Positions 24,209-62,451 of a DNA stretch of 64,000 bases are shown here, in pieces. The stretch covers positions 8,752 through 72,751 of the forward strand of contig DAIF01000001.1 of NCBI GenBank assembly GCA_002496015.1, in the 5' to 3' direction. Origin of the DNA: Candidatus Pacearchaeota archaeon UBA73 (GTDB lineage Archaea > Nanobdellota > Nanobdellia > Pacearchaeales > GW2011-AR1). The notes below the pieces were generated by a model. The model worked only from the letters and a program-made list of their open reading frames with translations, did no database searches and had not been told where the DNA came from. Each line of letters opens with the position of its first letter. Positions within the stretch are counted from its first letter, which is position 1. Position numbers and translations under genes: made by a program.

Positions 24209-25501
24209 TTATTCTCCAAACTTTAGTCTGGTAATTCCCATATCTCTCATCTTCAATATTCCTTCTTTAGAACTCACCCAATTTTTCAGAAACTCGCGCG
24301 CATTCGTTTCTTTTATCTTTGCATAGATATAGCCGCCCTTACGCATAGTTTTTTTATTGGATTTCTCAAATGCTTCAACGTCCTTCATCCTGGTTAATGG
24401 CGGACCCATCTTTAGAATTTCTTTATGACTCTTAACAACAAGATAATGGTGTGCAGAGCTTCCTTCGCCAGGATAAACGAATTCCTTCTGAACAATTAAA
24501 AAATATTCGCCTAACAATCTCTCGACTAACCTTGAAAACTTTTTCATCTTAGTTCCCGCAATATCCCCTTCTTGTCTATCAGTGCTCAGGATGATATGTA
24601 AAAACTCGCCGTCTCGGATCCTCTTTCTCACCTTTTGACCATCGACTTTCTCCTCATAAAAATATTTTTCTGACGGACTCCTTAGGAAACTTTTGGCGAC
24701 ATCTTGAAACTTCTCAAAGCTCTCAGCGCTCAAGGATGCGAGCACATTCCTTTCCCTCCAGGTCGGATCAACGAGGACGATTGGGCTTGCAAGTTTACTT
24801 TCATTCATCTCAAAAAATACATCATCCTTCTTTTTGTAATGTTTCTCAATATCAATAACAATGCGCTCGCCTTTCGGTATTTTAACTAATCCTCTCAACA
24901 TCTTTACAAAACTCTTGTAATATACTATCAGGCACTCCAAGCCGTACCCTGAAAAACCGTGTATGTACGATTCAGCTCCATATATAGAATGTGCTTTAAA
25001 GAACTTCTTCGCTAAAGCAAGCTCCCTTCTCATCTTTTCATTCAGTTTCCTCTGAATATAATTGACGTGAAAATAACTCAGGTCCGTGACGTTGCGCGCG
25101 TCTTTCACCCTTTTTATTCTGACAACTGGAATGACCTCAAAAGTCAGATTGCTCTCTCCAAAGACACGAAAATAATCTCTGCTCCCGTGCATCCGCTTAA
25201 CCTGCAACTTAAGTCTTTTCGCGACAGATTTCACCATCTTCTCAAGTCTGTCTGATAAGTTTTCATACTTCCAGTCAAATCTTACAAATATATCTGCATC
25301 GTATTGATTTGATTTTGTCAGAGTTCTCTTCGCAAAGCTCCCTCCTAAAAATATATCTGCATCAGCTTCTTTTTTTACCTCCTCACCAAGAACCACCATA
25401 AATCTATCAACTTCTTTTTTCAGCTCTTTGAACTCCTTCCCCCCAACAGAAAAATCCAGACCGCGCAACACTCTCTTCGAATCCATCACTATTAAAAACA
25501 A
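24209..25501 (-). CDS. cca: Archaeal-type CCA-adding tRNA nucleotidyltransferase
   Basis: 430 aa. LGGSFAKRTLTKSNQYDADIFVRF (pol-beta NTase GS...D.D) and GAESYIHGFSGYGLECL, characteristic of class I CCA enzymes. Confidence 0.6.
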   Translation of the reverse strand: MFLIVMDSKRVLRGLDFSVGGKEFKELKKEVDRFMVVLGEEVKKEADADIFLGGSFAKRTLTKSNQYDADIFVRFDWKYENLSDRLEKMVKSVAKRLKLQVKRMHGSRDYFRVFGESNLTFEVIPVVRIKRVKDARNVTDLSYFHVNYIQRKLNEKMRRELALAKKFFKAHSIYGAESYIHGFSGYGLECLIVYYKSFVKMLRGLVKIPKGERIVIDIEKHYKKKDDVFFEMNESKLASPIVLVDPTWRERNVLASLSAESFEKFQDVAKSFLRSPSEKYFYEEKVDGQKVRKRIRDGEFLHIILSTDRQEGDIAGTKMKKFSRLVERLLGEYFLIVQKEFVYPGEGSSAHHYLVVKSHKEILKMGPPLTRMKDVEAFEKSNKKTMRKGGYIYAKIKETNAREFLKNWVSSKEGILKMRDMGITRLKFGE

Positions 25502-25510
25502 TACTCCCTT

Positions 25511-25897
25511 TTAAGTCTGTGGTTTTTTTAAGTGGACAGCCAAGTCTATTATATACTTCCCATCCTCCAACTTGTAGACCCGCGGTTTATCTACGGCAAA
25601 CAAGTTCGCAAGATCCACAGCATATTTCCCAGGTTTTATTACTTTTACACTCTCAAAATCTAAGAACACCGGCACATCTTCATCGACAATTCCTGCAATC
25701 TCCCGGACATCCTTCTCAACCTGTCTCTTGTCCTCCCCAAAAAACTCCACTTCTGTATCCTCTTGCTGCTTCACTCTCTCAATCTGATCCTTGCGAATAT
25801 AAAAGAAAAACTTCCTGCCGCACGAATCACAACCTTTAAGGACTTGCTCTGATCCGTCATCAAACATTTTTGAACAATGAATACATCTATAGGGCAT
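25511..25897 (-). CDS. Zn-ribbon protein (C4), function unknown
   Basis: MPYRCIHCSKMF...GCDSCGRKF. Last gene of the GTPase / small protein / Zn-ribbon trio. Confidence 0.5.
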   Translation of the reverse strand: MPYRCIHCSKMFDDGSEQVLKGCDSCGRKFFFYIRKDQIERVKQQEDTEVEFFGEDKRQVEKDVREIAGIVDEDVPVFLDFESVKVIKPGKYAVDLANLFAVDKPRVYKLEDGKYIIDLAVHLKKPQT

Positions 25898-25961
25898 AAT
25901 CCGATTAAATAATGGGAATTAATAAACATTTGTTTAAGCCAATAGCTATTCGTTTAACAGA

Positions 25962-26363
25962 CTAACTAAGTAACACTTCTAGTCTCTTCGGGTCTCTTTT
26001 AATTTCTTTGACGATTGTCGCAGGCCCAATAACTGTCAGTGCTGAATTATCCCCCACTAGTTTTTTAGCAAGGTTATATCTAAATTTCACAAGAAAGCTT
26101 TCATTTTTCAGATTAGGCTCTATCACCGCAAGCTCTATTCCCCTGAAACTTTTTATATGGTCAACCATCGCCATCGTGTCTTCAATCAGTCGCGCCTCTT
26201 CTTCAGGTCGGAGTCTTCCATGCAAAATTACTATCTTATTTCCCAATACCAAAGTTAATATTTTCTTAACCCTTTGGGCAATCGTCAGATCCTGTACCTC
26301 CGAAAATGGCAGAACCTGCAGACTTAACCCCCTATATTTTCCTGATACTTTCTTCTCTATCAT
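25962..26363 (-). CDS. Conserved hypothetical protein co-transcribed with a small GTPase
   Basis: 133 aa, no motif recognised. 4-nt overlap with the upstream GTPase gene. Confidence 0.4.
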   Translation of the reverse strand: MIEKKVSGKYRGLSLQVLPFSEVQDLTIAQRVKKILTLVLGNKIVILHGRLRPEEEARLIEDTMAMVDHIKSFRGIELAVIEPNLKNESFLVKFRYNLAKKLVGDNSALTVIGPATIVKEIKRDPKRLEVLLS

Positions 26364-26998
26364 ACTTTCCTCGCTAGTTTAAACAAAGACTCATAAAATT
26401 CATCCATGTTTATGCCTTCTTTCGCCGAAACTCCCACAACTTCATAATCTGGAAAAGCGCTCTCAATTTTTTTAACATCTGCTTTCTTTAAGTCAACTTT
26501 ATTTCCGACAACCAATACGGGGATTTTTCTCGCCACAAGGTTTCCGATGATTGTGATATTAACTTGCGAGTAAGGGTTCTCAGTAGCGTCCAATATGACA
26601 ATAACCGCATCCACATCATCGAGCCATTTTATCGCTTCAATTATTCCTTGGGTGGCTTCCTTCGCTCTCTTCTTTGCGATCTTTTTTTTCAATCCAAACC
26701 TCAGGAAATTCTCGTAATCGACCCGTGTTGCAATTCCAGGAGTATCAACAAGTTTGAAGGTCATCGTTTTTCCCTTATACTTTATCTCAACTTTCTCTTT
26801 TATCTGGACGTTTCTTGTTTCATGCGGCACTGAACTCACCGAGCCGATTTCTTCTCCTGTCCAGTCTTTGCATATCCTATTCGCTAAAGACGTCTTTCCG
26901 GCATTCGGCGGTCCGTAGAATCCTATCTTGATATTCTCTCTCTTTCGAAATAAACTTCCGAAGATCCTTGCAGAGACTCTTTTCAGTATTTTGAACAT
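26360..26998 (-). CDS. Small GTP-binding protein (P-loop GTPase)
   Basis: G1 GPPNAGKTS, G3 VDTPG, G4 VGNKVDL. 212 aa. Confidence 0.7.
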   Translation of the reverse strand: MFKILKRVSARIFGSLFRKRENIKIGFYGPPNAGKTSLANRICKDWTGEEIGSVSSVPHETRNVQIKEKVEIKYKGKTMTFKLVDTPGIATRVDYENFLRFGLKKKIAKKRAKEATQGIIEAIKWLDDVDAVIVILDATENPYSQVNITIIGNLVARKIPVLVVGNKVDLKKADVKKIESAFPDYEVVGVSAKEGINMDEFYESLFKLARKV

Positions 26999-27003
26999 CT
27001 TAA

Positions 27004-29796
27004 CTATAAATTGGGTCGTTTAATAAATCTTGTGTCTATCGGGCGCCCTCCTTGCTGTTTTTCTAATTCTTTTCTCACCTTTCTGTTTTCTGCAAACTTG
27101 AACAATGGTATCTCCCACATGCCGGTTCTTTTTCCTTCCAGTTTCCTGAACGCATAAGTTATCTGTTCCGAAGTCCACTTCCGCCCACGAAGCGTTTCTT
27201 TTATTGCTGTATCTTTTAGTCCATTCCTTCTGGAGTTGTAGATGAAGTTCAATAAGTTATACAAGTCATTCGAGTTCGGGAAAAGGTGTTTCTCATAATT
27301 ATGTTTGTACCACCATTGTAACAAGAGATAAACCGCTAGAAAGAAAACAAGTATGATGGATAGGCTTATCAGAAACCTTCTCCAAAGAAAATTTCCCTCG
27401 GGATCGCAATTCTCTAACCAACATTTTATAATCGGTCTTGTGTCAATTCCTAAGCTGGAAGGCGGCGGCGAGATATACACACCAAGATTCATTATCCCCG
27501 GAGAACTCGCTCCAACAATCGCGAATTCCGCACTCGTTATCGGCTCCATCTTTATTTCAGCATACGTCCCCCCACTGACACTCGTCTCTCTGAACCTATC
27601 TCCACCGGAAATAAATGTTAATGCATTCTTGGGATATCCTATAACTAAGTACGCAGAATCTGTTTCAGGATCTTTTTTCTCGACAAGAGTTATTTTATAA
27701 GTCTTAAGTATCTCTGTTTCTTGAATCTCGTTTTTCGCAGAGATTGCTTCAAAAGTTATCTGCACATCATAATGTTCCATCATCCAGCCGAACACACTCG
27801 CTTTTAATTCGTCTTCATCAGGCGGCACTTCATCAATCCCTGCTATTTCCATAACATGCGCCATATTAGCCTTTTCATATCCTATTTCTGCCGGCAGAGT
27901 CCCGGTGGCGCTTGTATAAACAGAACTTGGCAGATCAATGCTTAATAAGTCATCTATGATTGAGATGTAACTGCTCTCCGGAGCATTTTCACTCAATGCT
28001 TCAAACTCCTGTTTCTTAGATTGAATAAAAGATTTTTTGGTTTCAATTCCTAACGCGCTGGATAAGATAGTTCTCACTGCAGTTGGATACGTGCTTATAT
28101 CTGATTCTAAGTTTGCTATCCTCGCTTCATAATCTCTCAGGATAAGACTCGCAGAGGTCTTGGCTTCTCCGACTATTACTGTGAACCTTTTCGTTGAATT
28201 TAAGCCAGAACCCCTCACAAGGGTCACTTTGACAGCGTATTCTCCGTCTGATTCAAAGGTATGCTTCACACTTGTCCCTTGAACTGTGATAGGAGACGCG
28301 CCATCTCCAAATTCCCAAATCGAGTGGGTGACATTGACTGCCGACCTCGCCGTGAAAATAGTCTCTCTGCCGATGTATGCAAATCTCGGTGTGACTTCGA
28401 AAGAAAATCCTATGTCCACATCAATAATCTTTTCAATAACTTCTTCTCCTCCTAAAAACAATCTGAACGTATGTTTTCCATCCTCATTTGGGACTTTGAA
28501 ATCCATTTCTTCTACAGGTATCATCGTCCAACCAGTGCTTACTCTTGCAGGCCTTTCTCGTAGTTCATATATCATCGCAGGGTTTTGACTCCGCCTAGTC
28601 CCCGATCCAATTCTATATCCCAATTTTCCGCCATACAATAATTGCCCTTCAGCAGGCATGCCCCAGATGCTGAATGGAATTACGCAACCATCTTCGCCAG
28701 AGCAATTCATACCATAGGTATAGTTAAGGTACTCTGCCACGTCATCTCTCAGATTTCGGTCTGTTATGGTTTCATAGGTATTTCTGTCAAACCTGACATA
28801 ACTTACGCTCTCAAAACCCCTCGGCTTGATAAACAAATCAAAATCTAATTCAAAATCGTCCTTCGATACTCTATCTCCAGGTTCAAACACTAATCCGCAA
28901 GTCTCTCTGTCATCCTCATTTGTATTTATCGTGAAATAGTCAGCAAATCTTTCCTCAGTATAAACACAGACAAGAGCGTCAAATTTCTCGAGCGCAGAGT
29001 GATTTATCACTACAGGAAATTCCGTGCCTACTGAAAGAGGCAGCCCATTTAACCACCCCCCGCCGTAAGCGTCTCCCCCGTCCAAGGGGTACATTGCAAA
29101 TGCTAAATTACCTCCGCTCTTAAGAACATTAATCTTCCCTCCAATTTCATACGATGCCGCAGGAGGAATGTCTTTCATATACTCACAATACAACTCTCTG
29201 CCTATCGGTACATCTCCTTCCGAATCTTCTTCGTCAAAGCATCCACGATTTTTCAAGGTTATCGGATAAAAGACACTTCCGCAGGTTAAAGAACCGGCGC
29301 GGGGTTTTGTGTTGTAATAATCTATTTTACCATCGTCAAACAAATCAATATATATCTGATTCCAACAGGTTTGGCTTACATAGACATCAACCCAAAATTC
29401 CAACTCGTCAAAGTTTGATACGATTCTGTCAGACTCTTTTATTCTAAAACCATAAGTTCTCTTCTCTTCGCCCAACGTTATTCTCTTAGCAGTCTCTCCG
29501 TTTAGTGCAGCATAATAACTTAGGCAACTTACAGGATCGCAAGTATAAGCACTTCCTTTTGTCAGATTCATCGCATTAAAAACATCAAGCAGCCTTATTT
29601 TCTGGTCATTTAAGCTATTAGTGAAATAGACATTTTCTTGTCTGTCAAAGCTCATATTCAAAATGCCTGAAACCACATCCCCTTCTAGGTAATTTCCATC
29701 GATATAAGAAGAGTTTTTTCTGATTGAGAAATCAGCAGCGCTGACTAAGCTTACTGCCAAAAAAAATCCGACTAAAAATAAACTTCCTTTCTTCAT
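27004..29796 (-). CDS. Large secreted surface protein with C-terminal TM anchor and cytoplasmic tail
   Basis: 930 aa. Signal peptide MKKGSLFLVGFFLAVSLVSA; TM FLISLSIILVFFLAVYLLLQWW near the C-terminus. Confidence 0.6.
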   Translation of the reverse strand: MKKGSLFLVGFFLAVSLVSAADFSIRKNSSYIDGNYLEGDVVSGILNMSFDRQENVYFTNSLNDQKIRLLDVFNAMNLTKGSAYTCDPVSCLSYYAALNGETAKRITLGEEKRTYGFRIKESDRIVSNFDELEFWVDVYVSQTCWNQIYIDLFDDGKIDYYNTKPRAGSLTCGSVFYPITLKNRGCFDEEDSEGDVPIGRELYCEYMKDIPPAASYEIGGKINVLKSGGNLAFAMYPLDGGDAYGGGWLNGLPLSVGTEFPVVINHSALEKFDALVCVYTEERFADYFTINTNEDDRETCGLVFEPGDRVSKDDFELDFDLFIKPRGFESVSYVRFDRNTYETITDRNLRDDVAEYLNYTYGMNCSGEDGCVIPFSIWGMPAEGQLLYGGKLGYRIGSGTRRSQNPAMIYELRERPARVSTGWTMIPVEEMDFKVPNEDGKHTFRLFLGGEEVIEKIIDVDIGFSFEVTPRFAYIGRETIFTARSAVNVTHSIWEFGDGASPITVQGTSVKHTFESDGEYAVKVTLVRGSGLNSTKRFTVIVGEAKTSASLILRDYEARIANLESDISTYPTAVRTILSSALGIETKKSFIQSKKQEFEALSENAPESSYISIIDDLLSIDLPSSVYTSATGTLPAEIGYEKANMAHVMEIAGIDEVPPDEDELKASVFGWMMEHYDVQITFEAISAKNEIQETEILKTYKITLVEKKDPETDSAYLVIGYPKNALTFISGGDRFRETSVSGGTYAEIKMEPITSAEFAIVGASSPGIMNLGVYISPPPSSLGIDTRPIIKCWLENCDPEGNFLWRRFLISLSIILVFFLAVYLLLQWWYKHNYEKHLFPNSNDLYNLLNFIYNSRRNGLKDTAIKETLRGRKWTSEQITYAFRKLEGKRTGMWEIPLFKFAENRKVRKELEKQQGGRPIDTRFIKRPNL

Positions 29797-31511
29797 TTTT
29801 TTCTCATGATAGCATAAATCAAAGTGATTAAAATCGCTGCCAAAACCAATCCAACTGTGCCAATAGCTGGCAGCTCAATAACTGTTGGACACTTAATTTG
29901 TGTTTCACAGGGCTGCCCGTCTCCGCAACCCACGTCACAGGTCCAAGTTTCTCCGGGAGGAATGGTCTTTGGCTCAACTCTCACTTTTCTAAATGGGCTG
30001 CTAGGCCCACAATCTTCCAAAACTGTGTAATCTGACCTACAGGTGCGAGTAGAATCGGATGCGGAATTAAAGTAAAAATAACACTCTCCATTGTTTTCAA
30101 TACCGTCGCCCTCATTCTCATCAAAAGCGCAACCCCATCCAGATAACGTCTCCCCGCCATATCCATTGTTCACTGGATCAGATGCACCAGGAACGCAGTC
30201 TTTCATGCAAAGCTCTCTCCTCATCGAATGATTTTTTACATCTCCAACCGACGGGTTTAGCGGATATACCTTGTTATAGTCCTGACAGCTACTTGGTGCT
30301 AACCAGTATTCTCCTTCCTGAAATTCAAACGGTTCATTATCATTACAGAAACCCCCGGAGCCGATACATCCGTCAAAATTGTAAGTACAACTTGAAGTGC
30401 AATTCAAAGTCCCACTTATATAGTCTCCTGCAGTTACGCAAGTCTCGCCCCCAAAATCGCACTCTCCTCCACTGCAATCACATTCTTCTCCTGCGAGCCG
30501 CTCCAATCTCCCATTGCCACATGCCGATTCGCTATTATCTTGCGGACTATCACAATCCAGATCCTCTCCATAATCTATATCCCCGTCGCCATCATTATCT
30601 CTCCCATCCTGACACTGCGAAGTACCGTCAGACTCGTTATTATCTCCAGGATTATAAGTAGATGGATTTGTCTGATCAGTCCAGCATCCTGGATCCAGAG
30701 AATCAGTTAATCCATCGCCATCATCGTCCATAGTATTGCTGCATTGTGCAAAGACGCACCCTGCAGAGTTGAACCGACATTCGTTCGGATGTTCTGGCGG
30801 AAAACATCCAAGAGTCCCGCCGGCAAACGGGCTGTCAGGTCTGAAGGTTGTGCAGTCTCTACCAGATAAATTGGTTCCATCGCACTCTTCGCCAATCTCA
30901 ATCACTCCATCTCCACAGACAGTAACACAATCCGGACAATTTGCTGGAGTTTCTCCGCGCTCTTCATATTCACAGATTCCGTTGTAATTGCATCTGCAAA
31001 TGAATTCCGAACGCGGCTTGCAACAAATTGAATAGTCATAATGTTTAGTAATTGCCAGATGAGCATTCGTATTTCCACTCAATGTGGTAATCATGCAATA
31101 ACCACTGCTTCCTGGCGCCTCATCGCAACTCTTCCCCCCCGTCTGTAAAAAACACTCGAGGTTTCCAAAACACACATCAGTATATTCTGACGTACTGCCA
31201 GCTGGTCCCTCAGCGTGCGCATCAGTAATGCCCGATAACCTCAGGACAGTATTGGTTCCATCGCATAAGTGGGGGTTGCCCCAAGACGGATAAACTCCTG
31301 AGAAATAATCATAGAAACAGATTTCATATGGATAACCTCCGCTCGCATTCCACTGTTCACCATGCGCATTTTGTAATGAACTTATCCTAAACAATCGCTG
31401 CTCACTGCTCGAACAATTTATCATCTCTATCGCGTTCACCCCATAGACAACAAAAAATATTCCTATTACGGCTAAAACTGAAAGGCGGATATACCCTCTT
31501 TTCATTACCAA
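29793..31511 (-). CDS. Cys-rich surface protein with CGDGxxxxxEECD repeats and Asp-rich (Ca-binding-like) repeats; C-terminal TM
   Basis: 572 aa. CGDGVIEIGEECDGTNLSGRDC; DDDGDGLTDSLDPGC; DGRDNDGDGDIDYGEDLDC. C-terminal LPAIGTVGLVLAAILITLIYAIMRKK. Confidence 0.6.
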   Translation of the reverse strand: MVMKRGYIRLSVLAVIGIFFVVYGVNAIEMINCSSSEQRLFRISSLQNAHGEQWNASGGYPYEICFYDYFSGVYPSWGNPHLCDGTNTVLRLSGITDAHAEGPAGSTSEYTDVCFGNLECFLQTGGKSCDEAPGSSGYCMITTLSGNTNAHLAITKHYDYSICCKPRSEFICRCNYNGICEYEERGETPANCPDCVTVCGDGVIEIGEECDGTNLSGRDCTTFRPDSPFAGGTLGCFPPEHPNECRFNSAGCVFAQCSNTMDDDGDGLTDSLDPGCWTDQTNPSTYNPGDNNESDGTSQCQDGRDNDGDGDIDYGEDLDCDSPQDNSESACGNGRLERLAGEECDCSGGECDFGGETCVTAGDYISGTLNCTSSCTYNFDGCIGSGGFCNDNEPFEFQEGEYWLAPSSCQDYNKVYPLNPSVGDVKNHSMRRELCMKDCVPGASDPVNNGYGGETLSGWGCAFDENEGDGIENNGECYFYFNSASDSTRTCRSDYTVLEDCGPSSPFRKVRVEPKTIPPGETWTCDVGCGDGQPCETQIKCPTVIELPAIGTVGLVLAAILITLIYAIMRKK

Positions 31512-31545
31512 CTCAATGAATCGAACTTTATAAAGCTTATCGGAA

Positions 31546-31974
31546 TCAAATCTCTTTTCTCCACATAAACACCTTTACTTTTTTTGGTTCGACGCTTTCA
31601 TTTTTTATGCTTCCACTTATTACTCTTTCTGAAGAGTATATGTCTTGTTCCGTGTTAGGATAAGGTTCAAGAAAACATACTTCTGTTAGGTTGCATATTT
31701 TCACCGAAATTTCAAACGCAGGGTTTTTAATTTTTGCCTCCAGCGCCAGTTTAAGCTGGTTCTCTAGCACTTCTTCATCTTCTCTCTCTGCGATTTTTTC
31801 TCTGAACGTCAAGTTTCTTGCTAGCTCGTCCATCAGGGGAGGCACTTCTCTGCCAATGTCTCTTCTTTCAGGAATATCTCTCTGAGCAGAGAGGAATACT
31901 AATGCTACTAATATTATTATGACTGCGACCGTGGCTTCAACAATTTTCAAAAATCCTCTTTTGTCCATTACCAT
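31546..31974 (-). CDS. Archaeal type IV pilin-like protein
   Basis: MVMDKRGFLKIVEATVAVIIILVALVFLSAQ: class III signal. Confidence 0.6.
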   Translation of the reverse strand: MVMDKRGFLKIVEATVAVIIILVALVFLSAQRDIPERRDIGREVPPLMDELARNLTFREKIAEREDEEVLENQLKLALEAKIKNPAFEISVKICNLTEVCFLEPYPNTEQDIYSSERVISGSIKNESVEPKKVKVFMWRKEI

Positions 31975-32684
31975 ACTTTCACGATTAGGTCTGCAAAAGT
32001 AACTGAGCCATCTTCTCGCAGAACCTCAACTCTTTTTTTCTCCGAAAATATTTCAAAATTATCCGGAATGGAATTTTCCGCAACTATCGAGTCTCCATTA
32101 TCAAACTCCAACGAAAATCCAAAATCTGCTCTGTCCGGTAGGTTGAAATTACTTTGGCTTTTCAAACCTCTGTAATCTGCATAATAAGCCTGATTTAGCA
32201 TTTTAAACTTTCTTTCAGAAATAACTTCTCTGGCTTCCGAGGAACCTATGCGATAGTATGTTTCATTGTGCTCCGCAGTTTCAGATAATGTGTCCTCTGA
32301 GAATTCCTCTCCAAAGACTACATAGATAAAGTCTTCCCCCACCCAGTTTTGAGAAGAGATATAAATTAATTCTCCGTTTGTCCCTCCTCTGGACGAATTT
32401 AAAATTCTCCCATCATACGTCAGAATAGTCGTATCCCCCGTCACTCCTGAGAAGTTCAGCGCTATCTCGCCGGACATTATTAGCGCACCATTGACATTCA
32501 CGGAAAAAAATTCTAAGCTGGTGCTCGTATTCTTTTCAATCTCCCTGAATGCATAGGAGATTGTTGTGCTCACAATCCTCGTGCCGTCTCCCGAATTAAA
32601 TAAATAAAGTCCGAAACCAACTGCAGTTATGAAAAGCACAAAAGATAATATTACCTCGATATGACTTATCCCTCTTTTCTTCAT
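31968..32684 (-). CDS. Archaeal type IV pilin-like protein (start refined to internal Met)
   Basis: ORF track gives 31968..33011, but the class III signal MKKRGISHIEVILSFVLFITAVGFGLYLF begins at residue 110. The upstream part overlaps the + strand methyltransferase gene. Confidence 0.55.
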   Translation of the reverse strand: MKKRGISHIEVILSFVLFITAVGFGLYLFNSGDGTRIVSTTISYAFREIEKNTSTSLEFFSVNVNGALIMSGEIALNFSGVTGDTTILTYDGRILNSSRGGTNGELIYISSQNWVGEDFIYVVFGEEFSEDTLSETAEHNETYYRIGSSEAREVISERKFKMLNQAYYADYRGLKSQSNFNLPDRADFGFSLEFDNGDSIVAENSIPDNFEIFSEKKRVEVLREDGSVTFADLIVKVW

Positions 32685-32735
32685 AACAAAAAGGCAGCTA
32701 ACTAGATTTATATACATTTTCTTACATCTTGTAAT

Positions 32736-33509
32736 ATGCTTCATGCCAAGATAAGACGCGAAATTATTCTCAAAATCAAGGAGAAAAGAGAACTCGCTGG
32801 TCTGGCAGACAGTGTAGTCGAAAATAATCTGGACGATTTTCTCAGAAAGAATAGGATTTCTCTCGCAGCTCTTTCCGAGAAAGAGAAAAAAATAATAGTA
32901 AAAGAAGTCAGAAGCACACTTCGGCTTCTCGCAGGAAGGTTTCGTAAGAGTGCGAAAAATAAGAATCATACAATTGACTTTGAGAACATCAACGAGCTTC
33001 TTCGCACCCACTCCTCAACAGCCGAAAGATTAAACTTCTATCCCAAATTCAAGGAAAAACTGCTTGAGATGAAGCCTGCCTCAATTCTAGACCTCGGCTG
33101 TGGTCTCAATCCAATCGCGCTCTCTCTCAAGGGAGTGGTTTACTATGCATCAGATATAAATATCAAAGACCTGTCTATTATCTCAGCTTACTTTAAGAAA
33201 CATCGCATAAAAGGCAAGACATTCGTTTTAGATTTACAAAAAATAGACTCTCCCTTACCAAATGCTGACGTTACTTTGTTATTGAAGTTGTTGGATGTGA
33301 TTGACCCAAAACATACGCTCTCAGAAAACATCCTTAATAAGATTCCATCTAAGAGAGTTATAGTGAGTTTCTCGACAAGAAAACTATCAGGTCGGAAAAT
33401 GAATTTCCCGCGCAGATACTGGTTTGAAAAACTTCTCTCAAAGCTTTATTACCATTACTACACGATCGAGACAGACAACGAGATATTCTACTTCATTACA
33501 AAACCCTAA
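32736..33509 (+). CDS. RmtB/ArmA (FmrO)-family 16S rRNA (guanine-N7) methyltransferase homolog
   Basis: 257 aa. HSSTAERL...ILDLGCGLNPIAL and VIVSFSTRKLSGRKMNFPRRYWFE resemble the aminoglycoside-resistance m7G1405 methyltransferases as recalled (HASTKERL...VLDIACGLNPLAL...AVSFPTRSLGGRGKGM..WFE). Recall-based. Confidence 0.55.
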   Translation: MLHAKIRREIILKIKEKRELAGLADSVVENNLDDFLRKNRISLAALSEKEKKIIVKEVRSTLRLLAGRFRKSAKNKNHTIDFENINELLRTHSSTAERLNFYPKFKEKLLEMKPASILDLGCGLNPIALSLKGVVYYASDINIKDLSIISAYFKKHRIKGKTFVLDLQKIDSPLPNADVTLLLKLLDVIDPKHTLSENILNKIPSKRVIVSFSTRKLSGRKMNFPRRYWFEKLLSKLYYHYYTIETDNEIFYFITKP

Positions 33510-34375
33510 GCTGCACCCAGAAACAACCTTGCACCGCTCGAGATTAAAAACGCTGCAATTACCATTATGAAAGAATGTTTAAGCCCGCTCTTTAAACTTC
33601 CCTCGGTCAATTTACCGACAACAAGTCCTATGAAAAACCCCTGCGTTATCAGTAGGTAAAGGAAAGGTGCGCTAAATTGCGAGGCGTCTATTTCTTGTCC
33701 TCCACCGCCAAAAATTCCTATTCCTAAATCCTGCCCCGTAGTCGAAATTCCTCCCAATCCTCCCGCCCCCGCAGTTAGTGGAATAATCTTGAATTCCATG
33801 ACAAGGATTATCCCAATGAATATGAAGAAGATTATATAACCCTGCACTATCAGCCCATACACTGCAGACTTCCTCTCTTTTTTCAGTTTCTCCACCTCAG
33901 CAATGGACTTCGCTGTCGAGTCAAGGATATAGTCTATGTCTCCTCCGGCTTTCTCAGCCTCTTTTATCAGACCAACTGCTCTTTTTACAACTACGCTGTC
34001 AATTTCCTTAGAGAATGTCTTGAGTGCCTCGCTCAGCGGAATACCTAATTCTATCTGATTAGACAATTTCTCTATATTGGGATTGAGAACTCCAAAATCC
34101 TTTCTCTTCATATTAACGATGGCTTTGCTTACAGGCGTACCGGCAGATACAGACTCAGCAAGATTCCTAGTGAACTCTAAGAACATTTCATTAGTTCTCT
34201 CAGACTTTCCGCTCTCAATCGCGATTCCAATGATGAACGGCAGCACAACAACCCCCAGTGCGATGCCTATAAGGAACAACAACATCTGTTGGTTGCTCCT
34301 GAAGAACGCAACATCCAGTGCTATGATTAATACTCCCGCGATTATTCCAAACCAGTGCATTTTTTTTAGTTTCAT
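33506..34375 (-). CDS. FlaJ/TadC-like pilus platform membrane protein, C-terminal half
   Basis: Polytopic membrane protein with a cytoplasmic T2SS-F-like segment (AESVSAGTPVSKAI...). Follows the N-terminal half, separated by a stop and 1 nt. Confidence 0.55.
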   Translation of the reverse strand: MKLKKMHWFGIIAGVLIIALDVAFFRSNQQMLLFLIGIALGVVVLPFIIGIAIESGKSERTNEMFLEFTRNLAESVSAGTPVSKAIVNMKRKDFGVLNPNIEKLSNQIELGIPLSEALKTFSKEIDSVVVKRAVGLIKEAEKAGGDIDYILDSTAKSIAEVEKLKKERKSAVYGLIVQGYIIFFIFIGIILVMEFKIIPLTAGAGGLGGISTTGQDLGIGIFGGGGQEIDASQFSAPFLYLLITQGFFIGLVVGKLTEGSLKSGLKHSFIMVIAAFLISSGARLFLGAA

Positions 34376-34376
34376 G

Positions 34377-35672
34377 TTAGTATGCCGGCTGCTTTATTTG
34401 CAAAAACACCAGGAATATGACATTTAAAACCGCGATGATTCCTACAGCCATAATGCTAAGCTGAGTGGGACCAAACCCCACATTCAATCCTGAAATTGCC
34501 ATCATAACTATCATCAATAAAAATACCATTGGCGCTGCAATGACAATGCTGATATAAATGTCAAGAAACGTTTCGACAAGTCTGGTGTATTTTTCTCTTT
34601 CTAATCTGTATGACAACAGAAGGCTCTCCGCTCTTTTCTCAAAATATTCCGACAAGTTCGCTCCGGATGTTATCGTTACTGAAAGCCCTGCGAACAGTTC
34701 GGCAAGCTTTTCACTCGGAGCAGTTTTTGCGGCATTGTTTAATGCAGTTGTCAGGTCATATCCGTAGAGATTTATCTGATTAAGCACCTTGCGTATTTCT
34801 TTCCTGAGGAAGGGATAATCTCTGCTCAATCCTATGATGCGGAAAATCTCTGTCGGCTCTATTCCCGCACCGGTAATCGCGCTCATATGAATAACTGCAA
34901 AAGGAAGTTCCTGATCAATCCTTGTTCCAAGAGATTTTTTCTCAGTTGAAGGATAATAATAAATCGCCAAAAACGTTAGGATAGGTATAGCTATTGGTAG
35001 CAAGATAAGTTTTGATGCGGCCGCAAGATACCCTGATGTTCTCAACTCCAAAAATGGCCATACTGGTATCGTGCTAAAAAACGTGAAGAACAGCCCCGCA
35101 AAAAACGCAACAACAAAAGCTATCAAAACAGTGAGATATATCATGGCGACATACGATTCAAATAAAATTTCCATATTTGCCTTTCGCAGGCTTTCACCAA
35201 GGTTCCGAAAGCTCCCCTTTCTTACAATCTTGCTAGCTGCGGAAAGAAAAAGCCGATTCGCTAATTTCAGATACCCCCTAGATGCCTTGAACTCCGTGAA
35301 CTTATCTTGCTCTTCTATGTCCCTCAGTTTTATTTTTCTCATGAAGTTATCGCTGATATTCAACTCCTTCAAGAATTTTGCTTTGTCCTTTGAGTGCAGC
35401 ACGACCTCTAATCCCGAGCCAAGTCCGCGGTATTTTACAAGCTCTAACTTCTTGTCCTTGCCCGAAGGGAGCTTCTTTGCCACTGAGATGTCTTTGAGAA
35501 GTGCCAGAGTGTTGTCATTTATTATCCTCATTCCTTCAACGATAGAATTTATCGCGCCGTCTAAAAGTTTCTTCTCATCGTCTGCAGCAGAGTCATATCG
35601 AGCAGCATAGCTCGCAATCTCTCTGAGCATAGATATTTCTGTTTCAATATTTTTCCTAAGCTCGTCTATCAT
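34377..35672 (-). CDS. FlaJ/TadC-like pilus platform membrane protein, N-terminal half
   Basis: 431 aa. Cytoplasmic T2SS-F-like domain followed by TM helices; typical platform partner of the FlaI/TadA ATPase. Confidence 0.55.
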   Translation of the reverse strand: MIDELRKNIETEISMLREIASYAARYDSAADDEKKLLDGAINSIVEGMRIINDNTLALLKDISVAKKLPSGKDKKLELVKYRGLGSGLEVVLHSKDKAKFLKELNISDNFMRKIKLRDIEEQDKFTEFKASRGYLKLANRLFLSAASKIVRKGSFRNLGESLRKANMEILFESYVAMIYLTVLIAFVVAFFAGLFFTFFSTIPVWPFLELRTSGYLAAASKLILLPIAIPILTFLAIYYYPSTEKKSLGTRIDQELPFAVIHMSAITGAGIEPTEIFRIIGLSRDYPFLRKEIRKVLNQINLYGYDLTTALNNAAKTAPSEKLAELFAGLSVTITSGANLSEYFEKRAESLLLSYRLEREKYTRLVETFLDIYISIVIAAPMVFLLMIVMMAISGLNVGFGPTQLSIMAVGIIAVLNVIFLVFLQIKQPAY

Positions 35673-35830
35673 AGCAAATCTTGAATCTGTTTCTGAAAAA
35701 TCATGATTTCTCGTTTTGCAGAATTCAACCTCTCAGCATCTTTGTTCCGCTCGGCAACAGCGAGCCTCTCTACAGCATCTTTCATGGCCGCCAAAAGCTG
35801 AGCTATGACTACAATATCCTCATTTTTCAT
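35669..35830 (-). CDS. Small ORF (53 aa) translationally coupled to the platform gene
   Basis: MKNEDIVVIAQLLAAMKDAVERLAVAERNKDAERLNSAKREIMIFQKQIQDLL. Its stop overlaps the start of 34377..35672 as ATGA. TATA-like tttatatag about 30 nt upstream. Manual translation. Confidence 0.3.
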   Translation of the reverse strand: MKNEDIVVIAQLLAAMKDAVERLAVAERNKDAERLNSAKREIMIFQKQIQDLL

Positions 35831-35909
35831 AAGCTAAAAAGAAAAATCTTGTTTATATAGTTTTCAATTTCTCTGGCTTCGCTAAAACCTCACTTGCGCT
35901 CAAGTTCAG

Positions 35910-37439
35910 TTATTCTCTTATCCCATATCTCTGCAACACTGCGACCGGATTTTTGTGAAACTCGTTCACCACCCACCCGACCTGGTCAAAATCAAATACT
36001 CCTTTGCGATAAAGCGTGTAAAGAAGTTTAGCGCGAGTTACCAAATCCTTGTATAGTTTATCAATAGGCGTTCCGGTGCGCATCGCAATTTTCTCAAGTA
36101 CCTTGCTCTGCTTCTTTGAATAAAAAATATCTTTTCCGGCATCCCACTTGAAAGGTGTATTCACAATCGCAGTTCCATCCGCATTTACATTCACTATCTC
36201 TACAATTTCTCTCACTTTTCTGGTCTCCTGTTTCCCGACGCGTGCATGCGTGGCAACAACTACACAATCTAATGTATTTACCAATGTGGGCGACAAACTG
36301 ATTGGTGGAGTTTGTAATCTTCTGATAAGCGTGTCAACAGAATCAGAGTGCATCGTGCTTATTGAAGAGTGTCCGGAAGCCATGCCCTGAAACAATACGA
36401 ATGCTTCTTTTCCTCTGACTTCTCCCACTATCAAATAGTCAGGAGTCTGCCTAAAAGAAGCTTTTAAAATTTCAAATAAATCTATCTCTCCAACCTTCCC
36501 AACTCCGATCGAAGTTCTCGCAACAGCCGGCAGCCAGTTTTCTCTGGGGAGATTAATCTCGCGGGTGTCCTCGATACTTACAACTCTCGCCTCCGGCGAA
36601 ATGAAAAATGCAAGTGCATTCAGCAAGGTAGTCTTACCTGATGCGGTTCCACCAGCAACGAGAATATTTGATTTATTCTCTATCAACAGCCAGAAATACG
36701 CGAGCATCTCCGGAGACAATGTATTCATCGCAATCAACTGAATCGGAGTCCAGGGAATCTTCGTGAATTTTCTTATTGTAAACGTGGGTCCGCGCGAAGA
36801 AACATCTTTAGTGTAAGTAGCATTAACTCTCGAACCGTCCGGCAGCGTTCCGTCAAGCAACGGCTGTGCATAAGAAACATACCTCCCGGTGCGCTGAGCT
36901 AATTTCTCTACAAAACTCGCGAGTTTGTCTATATCTCTGTAAACTATATTCGTTCTAAGATTTCTGAAAACCCTATGCACAATAAATATCGGTGTGTTCG
37001 CCCCATTGCATTCTATGTCCTCTATAAAATAATCTCGCAGCAAGGGATCTACTTCATTCAGTCCGATAAAATCTCTAAACAAGTAGTAGAATATCTTTTT
37101 GTAACTCTCAGAAGTTATCTTTATATTCAATTCGTCAATCAATAGTCTCGCAGTCTTGTCAATATAGTTCGTCGTGGCTTCAAGCGTGTTTTCAACAGCG
37201 ACGTTGACGTTTATTAGCTCTAGCATTGCCTCTTCGACCCTCGTAAGCAGAGCTTTCTCTTCTTCGGTGAGGATTGGTTCTTCAAGCTCATAAACTAGTT
37301 CATTGATTTTACTATCCCAAAATATATGTGCCGACGCATAAGGCGAAATTAGCATATACCTGACATCAACTCCCCTTTTATCTTTGTAACGTGGAATCGG
37401 CGGAACAGCCGGATTCAAGTTGATCTTTTCAACCATCAA
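35910..37439 (-). CDS. Type IV pilus/archaellum-type assembly ATPase (FlaI/TadA/GspE-VirB11 family)
   Basis: 509 aa. Walker A LVAGGTASGKTT; Walker B/Asp box IVGEVRG; His box. Confidence 0.8.
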   Translation of the reverse strand: MMVEKINLNPAVPPIPRYKDKRGVDVRYMLISPYASAHIFWDSKINELVYELEEPILTEEEKALLTRVEEAMLELINVNVAVENTLEATTNYIDKTARLLIDELNIKITSESYKKIFYYLFRDFIGLNEVDPLLRDYFIEDIECNGANTPIFIVHRVFRNLRTNIVYRDIDKLASFVEKLAQRTGRYVSYAQPLLDGTLPDGSRVNATYTKDVSSRGPTFTIRKFTKIPWTPIQLIAMNTLSPEMLAYFWLLIENKSNILVAGGTASGKTTLLNALAFFISPEARVVSIEDTREINLPRENWLPAVARTSIGVGKVGEIDLFEILKASFRQTPDYLIVGEVRGKEAFVLFQGMASGHSSISTMHSDSVDTLIRRLQTPPISLSPTLVNTLDCVVVATHARVGKQETRKVREIVEIVNVNADGTAIVNTPFKWDAGKDIFYSKKQSKVLEKIAMRTGTPIDKLYKDLVTRAKLLYTLYRKGVFDFDQVGWVVNEFHKNPVAVLQRYGIRE

Positions 37440-37466
37440 AGAAAAAAACGAACTATTTATTTAAAA

Positions 37467-38003
37467 CTATCTTCTTGAGGTTTCTTCTATGTCTATTTGG
37501 GGATATGGCTGTCCTCCAAGATTTCTTATAGAAAATGAATAAGCCGTTGACGCCGCAGTAAACTTTCTATTCTGATCCGACCCCCCATAAGTTATGTTTG
37601 TGATATTCTTATAATTCAAAATCAATACAGTATAAGCAGATTTCTCAGTTTCATATGAAGTAATGCGGACGTTTCCCTCTCTGATTTCAAATCCTACTTC
37701 TGAATACGGCTTGCTCAACCCATCAACTACAAAGATTATCTCGTCGCTGGTGGAATTGATTAATAATTCTCCTCTTTTCATCGTGAAAGCAGGGATGTTC
37801 CTCACATTGCCCTGGCCCCTATCAATTAATTCTCCAATACGTTCATCCCAAACGCTGAACGATTTAATGGTCTGCTCGACCAGAATCCTATCTCTGGACT
37901 CGTTTATCCTCGGGGTCGTAATAGCTAACACAATTCCTATCAGAGCTATCCCCATCAGCGTATACAAAACCGTTTCTATCCAGACTTGTGCCTTCTTGTT
38001 CAT
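37467..38003 (-). CDS. Archaeal type IV pilin-like protein
   Basis: Start refined to MNKKAQVWIETVLYTLMGIALIGIVLAI (ORF track 37467..38033). Confidence 0.5.
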   Translation of the reverse strand: MNKKAQVWIETVLYTLMGIALIGIVLAITTPRINESRDRILVEQTIKSFSVWDERIGELIDRGQGNVRNIPAFTMKRGELLINSTSDEIIFVVDGLSKPYSEVGFEIREGNVRITSYETEKSAYTVLILNYKNITNITYGGSDQNRKFTAASTAYSFSIRNLGGQPYPQIDIEETSRR

Positions 38004-38590
38004 TAGACCTCCAAAGCCACGCCCGGCTCGCAATAGATTCCTTTAATTCTCATTTTATCAGTCTGCGCGCATGTTCTATCATTCTTCAAAACAGGATAAA
38101 TCTCTATCATATCAAACTCAACGCTCGAATTATATACATAGGTTTTCACCCCACCCCTTTCAGGAAGAGTCAATGTCGAAACAGCTCGGTTTAACATTCT
38201 CATCTCTCCGACATTGTTGCCTGCAGTTGTGCCATTACGAACCTCGAATCCAACATCTTCTCCTCCGCCAAGAAATTGTATCTTTAATGCATTTATGTTC
38301 TCAAGCTTTTCAGCAGGCACAGTGTCTGCTTCTATAGACAAAGCATAGATGTAGTTCCCGCCTTCTATTTGATAACAATTATACTCAAACTCTTCATAAA
38401 ATAAAAAATAGTCCTCATACCCCAAACACTCCGTCCTCTCGTTTAATATATTCTGTACTAGAGGCACGACAAATCCCATTATAAGCACTGCGGCCGCAAC
38501 CGTTATTAAAATCAGAACAACGGTAGCCACAATAGAGGATATTCCCTTTCTATTAAACATATTCCGTACTGATACCATAGTCTGCATCAC
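38003..38590 (-). CDS. Archaeal type IV pilin-like protein
   Basis: NRKGISSIVATVVLILITVAAAVLIMGFV: class III signal. Confidence 0.6.
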   Translation of the reverse strand: MMQTMVSVRNMFNRKGISSIVATVVLILITVAAAVLIMGFVVPLVQNILNERTECLGYEDYFLFYEEFEYNCYQIEGGNYIYALSIEADTVPAEKLENINALKIQFLGGGEDVGFEVRNGTTAGNNVGEMRMLNRAVSTLTLPERGGVKTYVYNSSVEFDMIEIYPVLKNDRTCAQTDKMRIKGIYCEPGVALEV

Positions 38591-39068
38591 AAATATAAGA
38601 CAGTCTTTTCTGCTCTGTCTCTCCCAATAGGATCGGAACCGCGATTATTGTGTCTCCAGGACTTGCTCCCGAAGGAAGAGCGAAAACTCTCGTCTCTCCT
38701 GATTTAATTCCGTCGCCAGTTTGGCCGATTTCTTTTATTTCTCCCTTGCCCCTCACCCTCATTTCAACTGCCCAGATCGGAACGTCTCCGATATTATTTA
38801 CTGTCAGGTTGCCTCTTCTAGCTTCCATTAGAAATTCAACATCGTCGCATGACATCTCAATCGCACGTTCGTTCTTTTCAATAGTCTCAGCAATAAAACT
38901 TCTTGCCCAAAAGAATACTATCACTGCAAGGATTATTGTAATTGAGACTAACAGAGTTGTCGCAACGACCGGAGAAATACCTCTTTTCCCGCCCAACAGG
39001 AAAGGGAAAGCACAGGTGGCTATGCCACCTCTTTTCTTTAGAGCAGTCATGAATTTAAATGACTTCAA
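38553..39068 (-). CDS. Archaeal type IV pilin-like protein
   Basis: GKRGISPVVATTLLVSITIILAVIVFF: textbook class III signal. Confidence 0.6.
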   Translation of the reverse strand: MKSFKFMTALKKRGGIATCAFPFLLGGKRGISPVVATTLLVSITIILAVIVFFWARSFIAETIEKNERAIEMSCDDVEFLMEARRGNLTVNNIGDVPIWAVEMRVRGKGEIKEIGQTGDGIKSGETRVFALPSGASPGDTIIAVPILLGETEQKRLSYICDADYGISTEYV

Positions 39069-39088: not shown

Positions 39089-40075
39089 CTATTTTGTGCG
39101 CTGGATGTATTCATAAGCCGAATGTGCGGCAGTGCATCCTTCCGCAACTCCCGTGATTGCTTGTTTGAACGGCTTGTCTGCAACATCCCCTGCCGTAAAA
39201 ACTCCGGGAACGTTAGTACTAGAATCTTTATGATTCATTATGATTTCACTTCTCTCGTTCAACTCAACTCCTATTTCCCTTGCCAATCCCGAAAGAACTT
39301 CATGCCCTATAGCAACAAAAACCCCATCAAGTTTCAACTCCTTGTTTCCATCGTATTCTCTGTCCAAAACAACCCCTGTCACAAAATCTCCCCCCTTTAC
39401 CTCTACAACATTTGCATTGTTTATGATTTCTATCTTCTCATTCTCTTCAATTCTTTTCAGATTTATCGGCTCAGCTCTTATCTTCTCTTTTCTATATATA
39501 ATATAAACTTTCTTCGCATGTTCTGCCAAGACTAAAGCGTCTTTAGCCGCGCTGTCAGAGCCGCCGATTACCGCCACAGTCTTATTCCTGAATAAAGGCC
39601 CGTCGCACAAAGCACAATACCCTATCCCCCTATTTTCAAATTCTCTGCCCCCTTTTACTTCCTCAGGCAACTTTTTCCATTTTGTCCCTGTGGCAAACAA
39701 AATCGTCTTCCCAAAATATTCTCCTTTAGCAGTTTTCACCTTAAAGCTCTTGCCCTCTTTCAAAACTTTCTCAACTTTCTCTTCCTTTATTTCAACAAGC
39801 TCATAACTTCTTGCGTGCTTTTCAATTTTTTCCGCAAGTTCACTTCCCGATAATCTCTCAAATCCCGGATAGTTTTCAACAATGTTCGTCGTTGTTATCA
39901 CGCCCCCCACCGGCATCTCGCTCCCATGCGAACTTCCCAAGACCAAGGTCTTTAATCCAAGCCGCGCCCCATACATCGCAGCCGCCAAGCCCGCAACTCC
40001 TGCTCCTATCACAATAAAGTCATATCCTTTTTCCATAACCACAAAAAAAGAGATGATTATATAAATATTTGTCAA
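39089..40075 (-). CDS. trxB: Thioredoxin-disulfide reductase
   Basis: FAD motif DFIVIGAGVAGLAAA; redox-active CALCDG; NAD(P)-binding GGSDSA. Confidence 0.8.
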   Translation of the reverse strand: MTNIYIIISFFVVMEKGYDFIVIGAGVAGLAAAMYGARLGLKTLVLGSSHGSEMPVGGVITTTNIVENYPGFERLSGSELAEKIEKHARSYELVEIKEEKVEKVLKEGKSFKVKTAKGEYFGKTILFATGTKWKKLPEEVKGGREFENRGIGYCALCDGPLFRNKTVAVIGGSDSAAKDALVLAEHAKKVYIIYRKEKIRAEPINLKRIEENEKIEIINNANVVEVKGGDFVTGVVLDREYDGNKELKLDGVFVAIGHEVLSGLAREIGVELNERSEIIMNHKDSSTNVPGVFTAGDVADKPFKQAITGVAEGCTAAHSAYEYIQRTK

Positions 40076-40560
40076 CTCCGACGCTCATGGACATGAATCT
40101 TGAAACCCACTTAAAGAAACATAATATCTCCTTCATAGAGTACAATCACCCGGCAGTCTTTACAGTCGAAGAATCCAAAAAACTCAAACAATCTATCCCC
40201 GGAATGCAGTGCAAATGCCTTTTTCTTAAAGACGAAAACGAAAAATTCTATCTTGTAGCACTGCCTGCATTAAAGCGTCTTAACACAAAAAATCTTCGCT
40301 CAATTTTAGGCGTAAAGAAACTAAACTTTGGCTCCCCTGAAGAATTAAAGCAGCGTCTCAACTTGACTCCAGGTTCCGTTTCAATTTTCGGTATGATTTA
40401 CTCGACAAACGTTGTTCTAATTATTGACAAAGAAGTCTGGGACTCTTCCTCGTCAGGTTTCCACCCCAACCTAAACACATCAACACTGGTGATTTCTCAC
40501 GAAGGTCTTAAAAAATTCTACAACTCTCTGAACTCTGAAAAACGAATCCTTGTTTTATGA
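40069..40560 (+). CDS. YbaK/ProX-family aminoacyl-tRNA deacylase (candidate)
   Basis: 163 aa. Pattern K.L.LK......YLV.LP...RL..K.L....G.K.L....PEE matches the YbaK/ebsC fold by recollection. Confidence 0.45.
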   Translation: MSTPTLMDMNLETHLKKHNISFIEYNHPAVFTVEESKKLKQSIPGMQCKCLFLKDENEKFYLVALPALKRLNTKNLRSILGVKKLNFGSPEELKQRLNLTPGSVSIFGMIYSTNVVLIIDKEVWDSSSSGFHPNLNTSTLVISHEGLKKFYNSLNSEKRILVL

Positions 40561-62169: not shown

Positions 62170-62350
62170 AACATTTAAAGAATATTTTCTTAATTTTACT
62201 CCTAGCCAAATGGCTGGGCCACACGCTGGTTAATAGCGCTCGTAATTGAGTCATAAAATACAATCATTGCATCTAGTAAACAGTGAATCGATGGATGAGT
62301 TGAAATTTACAATGATGGTGAAACTTTGATTAATCAGCTACACAGTTCTC

Positions 62351-62434: not shown

Positions 62435-62451
62435 TGGCTTGCTAGGAAAAA

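Follow-up and report, generated by a model that had tools for sequence, protein, structure and literature searches.

An FmrO/Arm-family rRNA methyltransferase homolog in the pilus locus of a Pacearchaeota archaeon: a probably native gene with a predicted ribosomal role

Candidatus Pacearchaeota archaeon UBA73 encodes a member of the FmrO (Arm/Kgm) family of S-adenosylmethionine (SAM)-dependent methyltransferases. The gene lies in a 64,000-nucleotide stretch of contig DAIF01000001.1 (assembly GCA_002496015.1), hereafter the window, where it occupies positions 32736..33509 of the + strand as an ATG-to-stop open reading frame (ORF) of 257 amino acids plus stop, exactly the coordinates given in the original prediction. 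That prediction, drawn from the letters and translations, assigned the product to the RmtB/ArmA family, and profile, structure and residue comparisons all uphold the assignment, establishing both family membership and a two-domain fold. The gene is strongly favoured to be a native, vertically inherited family member in a DPANN archaeon of the Pacearchaeota/Woesearchaeota group (class Nanoarchaeia) over a recent acquisition. Its most likely function, put forward with somewhat better than even confidence and by analogy with the characterized enzymes, would be the intrinsic N7 methylation of the nucleotide equivalent to G1405 in small-subunit ribosomal RNA (rRNA).

The Pfam profile FmrO (PF07091) matches residues 85-228 of the 257-aa product at 68.4 bits against a gathering score of 27 (E 8.4e-19), while the remaining Pfam matches are all sub-threshold. 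PF07091 is also present in all of the best 120 of 417 homologs. The top eight NCBIfam matches are Rmt models, and NF000466 (Rmt family 16S rRNA (guanine(1405)-N(7))-methyltransferase) aligns over residues 49-254 at 120.7 bits (E 6.3e-35). The profile search suggested in the original prediction upholds the family assignment. Among PDB sequences, phmmer retrieves RmtF, Sgm, RmtB and ArmA at E values of 4e-14 to 1.7e-12, together with RmtC; the only other match of the single protein is a non-significant one to S17 (E 0.46). A profile built from 121 family sequences matches solely RmtB, ArmA, RmtF, Sgm and RmtC, with E values from 3.6e-25 (RmtB) to 1.8e-18. Neither the protein nor the family profile matched NpmA or KamB in the Pfam and PDB sequence searches. 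The motifs first quoted for the gene, SILDLGCGLNPIAL and VIVSFSTRKLSGRKMNFPRRYWFE, are both present in the product, and the RmtB strings set against them, VLDIACGLNPLAL and AVSFPTRSLGGRGKGM..WFE, can be seen in the alignment to PDB 3b89.

Structure prediction points to the same family. An AlphaFold2 model computed on the family alignment reaches a mean predicted local distance difference test (pLDDT) of 92.3 and a predicted template modelling score (pTM) of 0.88, being poorly defined solely in the inter-domain linker (residues 73-77). The model contains an N-terminal helical domain, predicted to dock on the 30S subunit (residues 1-66, positions 32736..32933), and a C-terminal class I Rossmann-fold catalytic domain (residues 82-257, positions 32979..33506). 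In a Foldseek search the first 16 matches are all m7G1405 (7-methylguanosine at position 1405) enzymes, with Sgm at a template modelling (TM) score of 0.80 and E 1.7e-16. The next family follows at E 5.5e-9, about seven orders of magnitude weaker than Sgm. The predicted structure superposes on Sgm and RmtB across almost its full length.

Functional residues were tabulated across 108 archaeal sequences and five bacterial enzymes, with roles taken from the RmtC-30S cryo-EM study (PMC10288597) and the study of Sgm (PMC2896518). The RmtC sequence used is identical to PDB 8ghu_A and was aligned to the family profile with hhalign (probability 97.9). Query residues K52, K56 and R59 correspond to the 30S phosphate contacts K43, K47 and R50 of RmtC, and F69 to Y60, which stacks on the flipped base. 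The HxSTxER motif comprises H92, S94, T95, E97 and R98 (RmtC H105, S107, E110 and R111), and motif I comprises D119, G121, G123, N125 and P126 (RmtC D134 region). The ribose ligand is D140 (RmtC D160) and the adenine ligand D166 (Sgm D182). K184 stands for the universal K204 of RmtC, which contacts N7 of G1405, R215 for the G1405 contact K236, and S218, G219, R220 and M222 for S239, G240, R241 and M245 of the loop that distorts helix 44 (h44). The equivalents of RmtC K43, K47, R50, G58, Y60, H105, S107, E110, R111, D134 and D160, as well as those of K204, K236, S239, G240 and R241, are conserved in the query as well as in the two archaeal clades, one linked to the pilus locus and one to pelota. 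The M245 equivalent, M222, is invariant in the pilus-locus clade and variable in the pelota clade. The SAM-binding residues R98, G123, D140, D166 and S94 (Sgm R108, G135, D156 and D182; RmtC S107 and D160) are invariant or at least 90% conserved, K184 is found in 107/108 of the archaeal sequences sampled, and position 69 is F or Y in the same proportion (107/108). The R220 position holds K or R across the archaeal clade. In total, 23 columns of the family alignment are invariant at the catalytic motifs.

These correspondences suggest how the enzyme could work. In analogy to RmtC on the E. coli 30S subunit, the N-terminal helical domain would dock on the assembled small subunit, at the rRNA surface made up of h24, h27, h44 and h45. 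The loop following strand beta6 (S218-G-R-K-M222) would then, with the N-terminal domain, pry open the top of h44 and flip out the G1405-equivalent guanine, upon which F69 would stack on the base, K184 would contact N7, and methyl transfer from SAM would yield m7G. Both the target nucleotide and a role in intrinsic ribosome modification rather than antibiotic defence are inferred. The universal 16S sequence 1392-1406 had no match in 94 related loci, and the window contains no rRNA gene.

Relatives of the gene are widespread in small archaeal genomes. A word-indexed protein search returned the 417 homologs, the best 120 of which are full length (244-293 aa), 46-92% identical to the query and, where their source is named, derived from metagenome-assembled genomes (MAGs) of Nanoarchaeota, Pacearchaeota or simply 'archaeon'. 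The closest relative among the matches listed, at 92% identity, comes from a biogas-fermenter metagenome. A HMMER scan of 1.84 billion cluster representatives yielded 1205 proteins at E<=1e-3, 600 at <=1e-10 and 100 at <=1e-30. In the GTDB species set, scanned with three peptide patterns, at least 296 contigs encode relatives, and 78 of the 80 best contigs are titled Pacearchaeota, Woesearchaeota, Nanoarchaeota, Parvarchaeota or 'archaeon'. Two contigs (L045 and L079) with the title 'uncultured Methanosarcinales archaeon' carry homologs of 42-45% identity in non-pilus contexts; these genes resemble those of Nanoarchaeia, so the bins may be mislabelled or contaminated.

The position of the gene is also conserved. 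Synteny was assessed by tblastn of the window's pilus proteins against 89 related loci. A 238-aa pilin-like gene (31968..32684, - strand) is the divergent neighbour of the methyltransferase gene in the window, and it is found divergent and within 700 nt in 77/80 loci with an upstream flank. On the other side, the second of two T2SSF genes is convergent within 7 kb in 81/83 loci and lies within 150 nt in 63. Insertions reach up to 5.6 kb on this T2SSF side and are almost absent from the pilin side.

More distant archaeal homologs, 31-40% identical to the query, carry NCBI names of Woesearchaeota or Nanoarchaeia, and the Joint Genome Institute (JGI) labels several of them '16S rRNA (guanine(1405)-N(7))-methyltransferase'. 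They include a sister clade with another genomic setting. In all four of its loci that were examined (L090, L092, L093 and L094) the first 7-16 nt of the homolog overlap the 3' end of the pelota gene on the same strand. Each of these loci also has genes for ribosomal protein S2 (rpS2) and/or phenylalanyl-tRNA synthetase (PheRS) in the vicinity, and a TrmB-family regulator gene adjoins the homolog in 4/4 loci, on the same strand in 3/4. The four proteins share 33-50% identity among themselves. Pelota is a ribosome-rescue factor that binds the A site of stalled ribosomes, and its conserved operon with the methyltransferase gene ties the archaeal family to the ribosome. Pelota was not found within 10 kb of the gene in related loci of the pilus-locus lineage, nor in the window, and no description of a conserved pelota-methyltransferase pair was found in the literature searched. 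The homologs of L045, L079 and L091 lie in unrelated contexts with no pilus genes nearby.

The original prediction had left open whether the archaeal copy was acquired horizontally or is native, and the second alternative is now strongly favoured. The GC content of the gene is 0.388 (0.434 at third codon positions), an ordinary value within the 0.385-0.454 of its neighbours and set against a window mean of 0.417. No transposase or integrase genes lie beside it in the window or in the related loci compared. Its sequence identity co-varies across loci with that of five neighbouring proteins (Spearman rho 0.43-0.54, p<=1e-4). In a neighbour-joining tree of the catalytic domain, 54 archaeal-like sequences stand apart from RmtB, RmtF, ArmA, RmtC and Sgm in 94/100 bootstraps; the tree includes five bacterial sequences, and archaeal origin is proven for some, not every one, of the 54 representatives. 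Ordinary GC content, the position kept in 77/80 loci, this split and co-divergence with the neighbours together argue against recent horizontal transfer, which was rejected. An ancient transfer, in either direction, may have occurred.

The same evidence bears on the proposal that the gene is an aminoglycoside-resistance determinant from bacteria, retained for the same m7G1405 chemistry against the 4,6-disubstituted deoxystreptamine aminoglycosides of neighbouring organisms. Precedent speaks for it, as the family members studied to date are all antibiotic-resistance enzymes, from aminoglycoside producers or pathogen plasmids, and every characterized one confers aminoglycoside resistance (PMC2896518; PMC10288597). 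In addition, the family profile scores highest against the pathogen-type enzymes RmtB and ArmA, above Sgm, and a tree published in 2010 put the archaeal protein NEQ545 near the pathogen group (PMC2896518). However, the gene shows neither a compositional anomaly nor adjacent mobile-element genes, it occupies the same site in 77/80 species-level genomes at 39-92% identity, it diverges together with its neighbours and apart from the five bacterial enzymes, and it forms an operon with pelota in the sister clade. Retention in very small genomes across a whole class also fits a core function better than an accessory defence. A resistance role is thus quite unlikely, and an acquired or mobile determinant was rejected on the lack of a mobile context, the GC content and the fixed position.

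The tight link to the pilin-like gene may have a simple basis in transcription. The two start codons are separated by a divergent intergenic region of 51 nt (32685..32735), a predicted bidirectional promoter. It contains a single TATA box, ATTTATATA (32706..32714), that is exactly central, 21 nt from each start codon. A BRE-like element (resembling the transcription factor B recognition element), GAAAATG, at 32715..32721 on the - strand is oriented to the pilin-like gene, and directly upstream of the TATA box on this strand two A positions are highly conserved. These positions we take to be a BRE, presumably fitting the usual archaeal element. Among 78 non-redundant loci, the spacer between start codons measures 48-52 nt in 50, with poorly conserved flanks. 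A single (A)TTTATATA or TTTAAATA box is found at a distance of 21 nt from the pilin-like ATG in 63/78 and 19-22 nt from the methyltransferase ATG in 58/78; loci with spacers of 70-80 nt have two boxes. The simplest reading of these sequences is one shared TATA box serving two leaderless mRNAs, such that the methyltransferase gene would be expressed back-to-back with the second pilus operon.

Such an arrangement has a parallel in Pyrococcus furiosus (P. furiosus), where a single TATA box was shown, by differential RNA sequencing (dRNA-seq) and by in vitro transcription, to be capable of driving transcription both ways, from start sites 49-50 bp apart (PMC6640164). The BRE-TATA-BRE element of those promoters lies midway (PMC6640164), much as the TATA box is central here between start codons 52 nt apart. 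In P. furiosus, though, the second transcript is mostly non-coding antisense RNA, whereas here both directions enter conserved protein-coding genes with apparently leaderless mRNAs, as judged from sequence alone. The window holds a second divergent pair of this kind, formed by a pyridine-nucleotide-disulphide oxidoreductase (thioredoxin-reductase-like) gene on the - strand and a YbaK/tRNA_edit-like gene on the + strand. Their 50-nt spacer (40037-40086) has one central ATTATATAAATA box, and the spacing is kept in related loci. The recurrence of the 50-nt design suggests a habit of the genome, not a special device. Because the TATA box is shared, the methyltransferase gene would be locked beside the pilin-like gene, with no insertions between them, and a functional link to the pilus is not required.

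Several observations weigh against a canonical G1405 methyltransferase with a purely housekeeping role. The NF000466 score of 120.7 bits falls short of the curated equivalog cut-off of 250, the reason why homologs are named 'hypothetical protein' in NCBI MAG records, and the models specific for RmtA-H give 31-62 bits against cut-offs of 500-550. The near-universal and essential His54 of RmtC is replaced by Arg63; this position is Arg in 99/108 and His in 7/108 archaeal sequences, while RmtB, RmtF and RmtC all carry His. The equivalent of Tyr21 is apparently non-aromatic, the first 45-50 residues being unaligned by HMMER and hhalign. In the helix register of this region, unaligned to the bacterial enzymes, the invariant K17 or R18 may stand for RmtC Lys20. 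The h44-distorting loop is two residues shorter than in the bacterial enzymes. D187 and R227 are invariant in the archaeal sequences only, at or near the positions of RmtC T207 and N248, which touch A1408 (PMC10288597), so the geometry of the contacts, and conceivably even the precise target, may not be the same. Finally, a pure housekeeping role does not predict the tight pairing with a pilin-like gene, though the shared TATA box accounts for it.

Taken further, the same points could mean that the fold serves another job, acting on another nucleotide, another RNA or a pilus component such as the processed N-terminus of a pilin, in which case the place of the gene would reflect a functional partnership. 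The divergent pilin pairing in 77/80 loci, despite insertions of up to 5.6 kb on the other side, favours this idea, as do the His54-to-Arg replacement, the archaeal-only D187 and R227, the shorter loop and the score under the Rmt equivalog cut-off. It is nevertheless unlikely. The residues that hold G1405 and the phosphate-contacting Lys/Arg of the N-terminal domain are conserved, homologs occur without pilus genes nearby (L045, L079 and L091) and beside pelota, and the 50-nt single-TATA design recurs at the unrelated oxidoreductase/YbaK-like pair. We know of no protein methylation by any member of the FmrO family, which counts against a pilin substrate. A pilin methyltransferase was rejected as the principal interpretation on the non-pilus and pelota contexts, the conserved residues and the second single-TATA pair. 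Methylation of the G1405 equivalent thus remains the preferred function.

The strand of the gene, opposite to that of all its neighbours, and a longer minus-strand ORF overlapping its 5' end raise the question of whether it is a chance ORF, or a pseudogene in decay, antisense within a pilus operon. Conservation refutes this explanation, which can be set aside almost entirely: among the 417 homologs the best 120 are full length at 46-92% identity, 23 columns are invariant, and the predicted structure has a pLDDT of 92. The ratio of nonsynonymous to synonymous substitution rates (dN/dS) against the 92%-identical homolog is 0.125, and the gene is under purifying selection. The overlapping 347-aa minus-strand ORF (31968..33011, GTG start) is the pilin-like gene over-extended by 109 codons, through the promoter and into the methyltransferase gene. 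The true start of the pilin-like gene is the internal ATG at 32684, which gives 238 aa and from which homologous loci call the gene.

A bolder combination of these ideas can also be framed. The decoding centre of a whole DPANN class might be constitutively N7-methylated at the G1405 equivalent, this low-GC archaeal clade of housekeeping enzymes might be close to the source of the pathogen-type ArmA/Rmt enzymes, and expression might be deliberately tied to a host-attachment pilus through the shared promoter. As a whole, this combination appears improbable.

The surrounding genes, at about 27.0-39.1 kb and all on the - strand, are type IV pilus genes that include T2SSE, two T2SSF and pilin-like genes. 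The original prediction described the methyltransferase gene as antisense inside a pilus operon; it does lie on the opposite strand within a pilus locus, yet it sits between two co-directional units and not inside a single operon. The first unit (34377..39068, - strand) has a gene order repeated in related loci. It begins with three small pilin-like genes (39068-37467, - strand), two of which were called by eye from their hydrophobic N-termini, while one (38553..39068, - strand) has a Pilin_N match just under threshold (24.7 bits against a cut-off of 25.2, E 4.5e-05). A T2SSE/VirB11-type ATPase gene (37439-35910, - strand) and the first T2SSF gene (35672-34377, - strand) follow. Between them, a 53-aa ORF (35669-35830, - strand) overlaps the T2SSF start by 4 nt; it is assigned to no family and has an identical place and length in all related loci examined.

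The second T2SSF gene (33506..34375, - strand) encodes a TadC/FlaJ-like membrane protein (PF00482, E 5.7e-16) and converges on the methyltransferase gene. Their stop codons overlap, with the methyltransferase TAA at 33507-33509 (+) and the T2SSF TAG at 33506-33508 (-), and no run of five or more T residues occurs on the + strand within 230 nt downstream of the methyltransferase stop; the methyltransferase transcript may thus extend into the T2SSF gene in antisense. The second pilus unit begins with the 238-aa pilin-like gene. The product of this gene has no match in the Pfam search, and its N-terminus (MKKRG|ISHIEVIL...) was read by eye as a class III signal peptide. The rest of this unit (27004..31974, - strand), whose order is conserved, encodes three proteins: one pilin-like (142 aa), one rich in Cys (572 aa) and one of 930 aa that has a PKD domain and a C-terminal transmembrane segment. 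Directly downstream of the pilus genes is a block of genes for an OapA-like GTPase, OapB, OapC and an archaeal CCA-adding enzyme (24209-26998, - strand). The order of this block is kept in L001, L002, L004 and L005, making the region unusually syntenic for such divergent genomes.

Other parts of the window contain two further elements. A signal recognition particle (SRP) RNA at 14572-14832 (+) passes the gathering threshold (GA) of the bacterial large-SRP model alone (63.8 bits, GA 60), while the archaeal model scores higher at 79.7 bits, yet below its own gathering score of 96.5. It is a divergent SRP RNA of archaeal type, and standard annotation would overlook it or give it the wrong label. 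Its best fit to the archaeal model is consistent with an archaeal origin of the window, as are the archaeal CCA-adding enzyme and a weak match to the primase small subunit. A complete diversity-generating retroelement spans 61393-63351. Its variable repeat of 89 nt (61974-62062) lies inside the 3' end of a 258-aa ORF without a Pfam match, and its template repeat (62344-62432) is 78% identical, with mismatches mostly at template adenines. An Rfam RT-16 RNA (62201-62346) is located between the two repeats, and the gene of a 299-aa reverse transcriptase (62452-63351) follows the template repeat.

An archaeal copy of the family had been considered unexpected; a precedent exists. NEQ545 of Nanoarchaeum equitans was reported as the first Arm-family ortholog from archaea (Husain et al. 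2010, PMC2896518), and some relatives of the present gene already bear JGI names for the activity. NEQ545 was described as a protein of unknown function with perfectly conserved C-terminal motifs and a diverged helical N-terminal domain that lacks one helix (PMC2896518). In the literature searched, no mention of NEQ545 was found beyond PMC2896518, nor any substantive pairing of FmrO or m7G1405 with DPANN archaea. As far as these searches reach, four features appear not to have been described: the spread across the class, the pair of conserved genomic settings, the promoter shared with the pilin-like gene and the His54-to-Arg signature.

Across a large class of ultra-small archaea, the family thus emerges as a chromosomal and conserved gene, with a pilin-locked lineage and a pelota-operon lineage. 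This conservation and these settings point to an intrinsic, non-resistance role for m7G1405-type methylation, and make it possible to test whether a 'resistance' enzyme family serves archaea as a housekeeping gene. The archaeal members bear on the origin of the ArmA/Rmt enzymes and, being adapted to archaeal ribosomes, give a natural panel of enzymes to compare with RmtC/30S structures. For resistome surveys, FmrO/Rmt matches in DPANN-rich metagenomes are probably housekeeping genes.

Among known systems, the protein resembles RmtB, ArmA, RmtC and RmtF in its helical N1/N2 and Rossmann domains and similar length, in its HxSTxER and LDxxCGxNP motifs and the Asp residues of motifs II and III, and in the Lys contacting N7, the base-stacking aromatic residue and the SG(R/K)..M loop. 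It differs from the Arm/Rmt enzymes of pathogens in sharing only 20-27% identity and scoring below the NCBI Rmt cut-offs, in carrying Arg for His54, apparently no aromatic residue in place of Tyr21, a loop two residues shorter, and D187 and R227. Those enzymes are borne on plasmids or transposons, whereas the archaeal gene is chromosomal, syntenic and class-wide, and its substrate would be the archaeal 30S subunit. Unlike the actinomycete self-resistance enzymes Sgm, KgmB, GrmA and FmrO, it has no antibiotic biosynthesis genes nearby, resides in a low-GC archaeal genome and has a profile closer to RmtB/ArmA than to Sgm. The NpmA/KamB m1A1408 (Kam) enzymes act in the same decoding-centre region of h44 and use the same 30S docking surface (PMC10288597), but belong to a different family. 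Compared by its published description, NEQ545 is likewise a DPANN archaeal member whose C-terminal motifs are conserved and whose helical N-terminal domain has diverged; in contrast to NEQ545, with its missing N-terminal helix (PMC2896518), the protein described here superposes on Sgm and RmtB over almost its full length.

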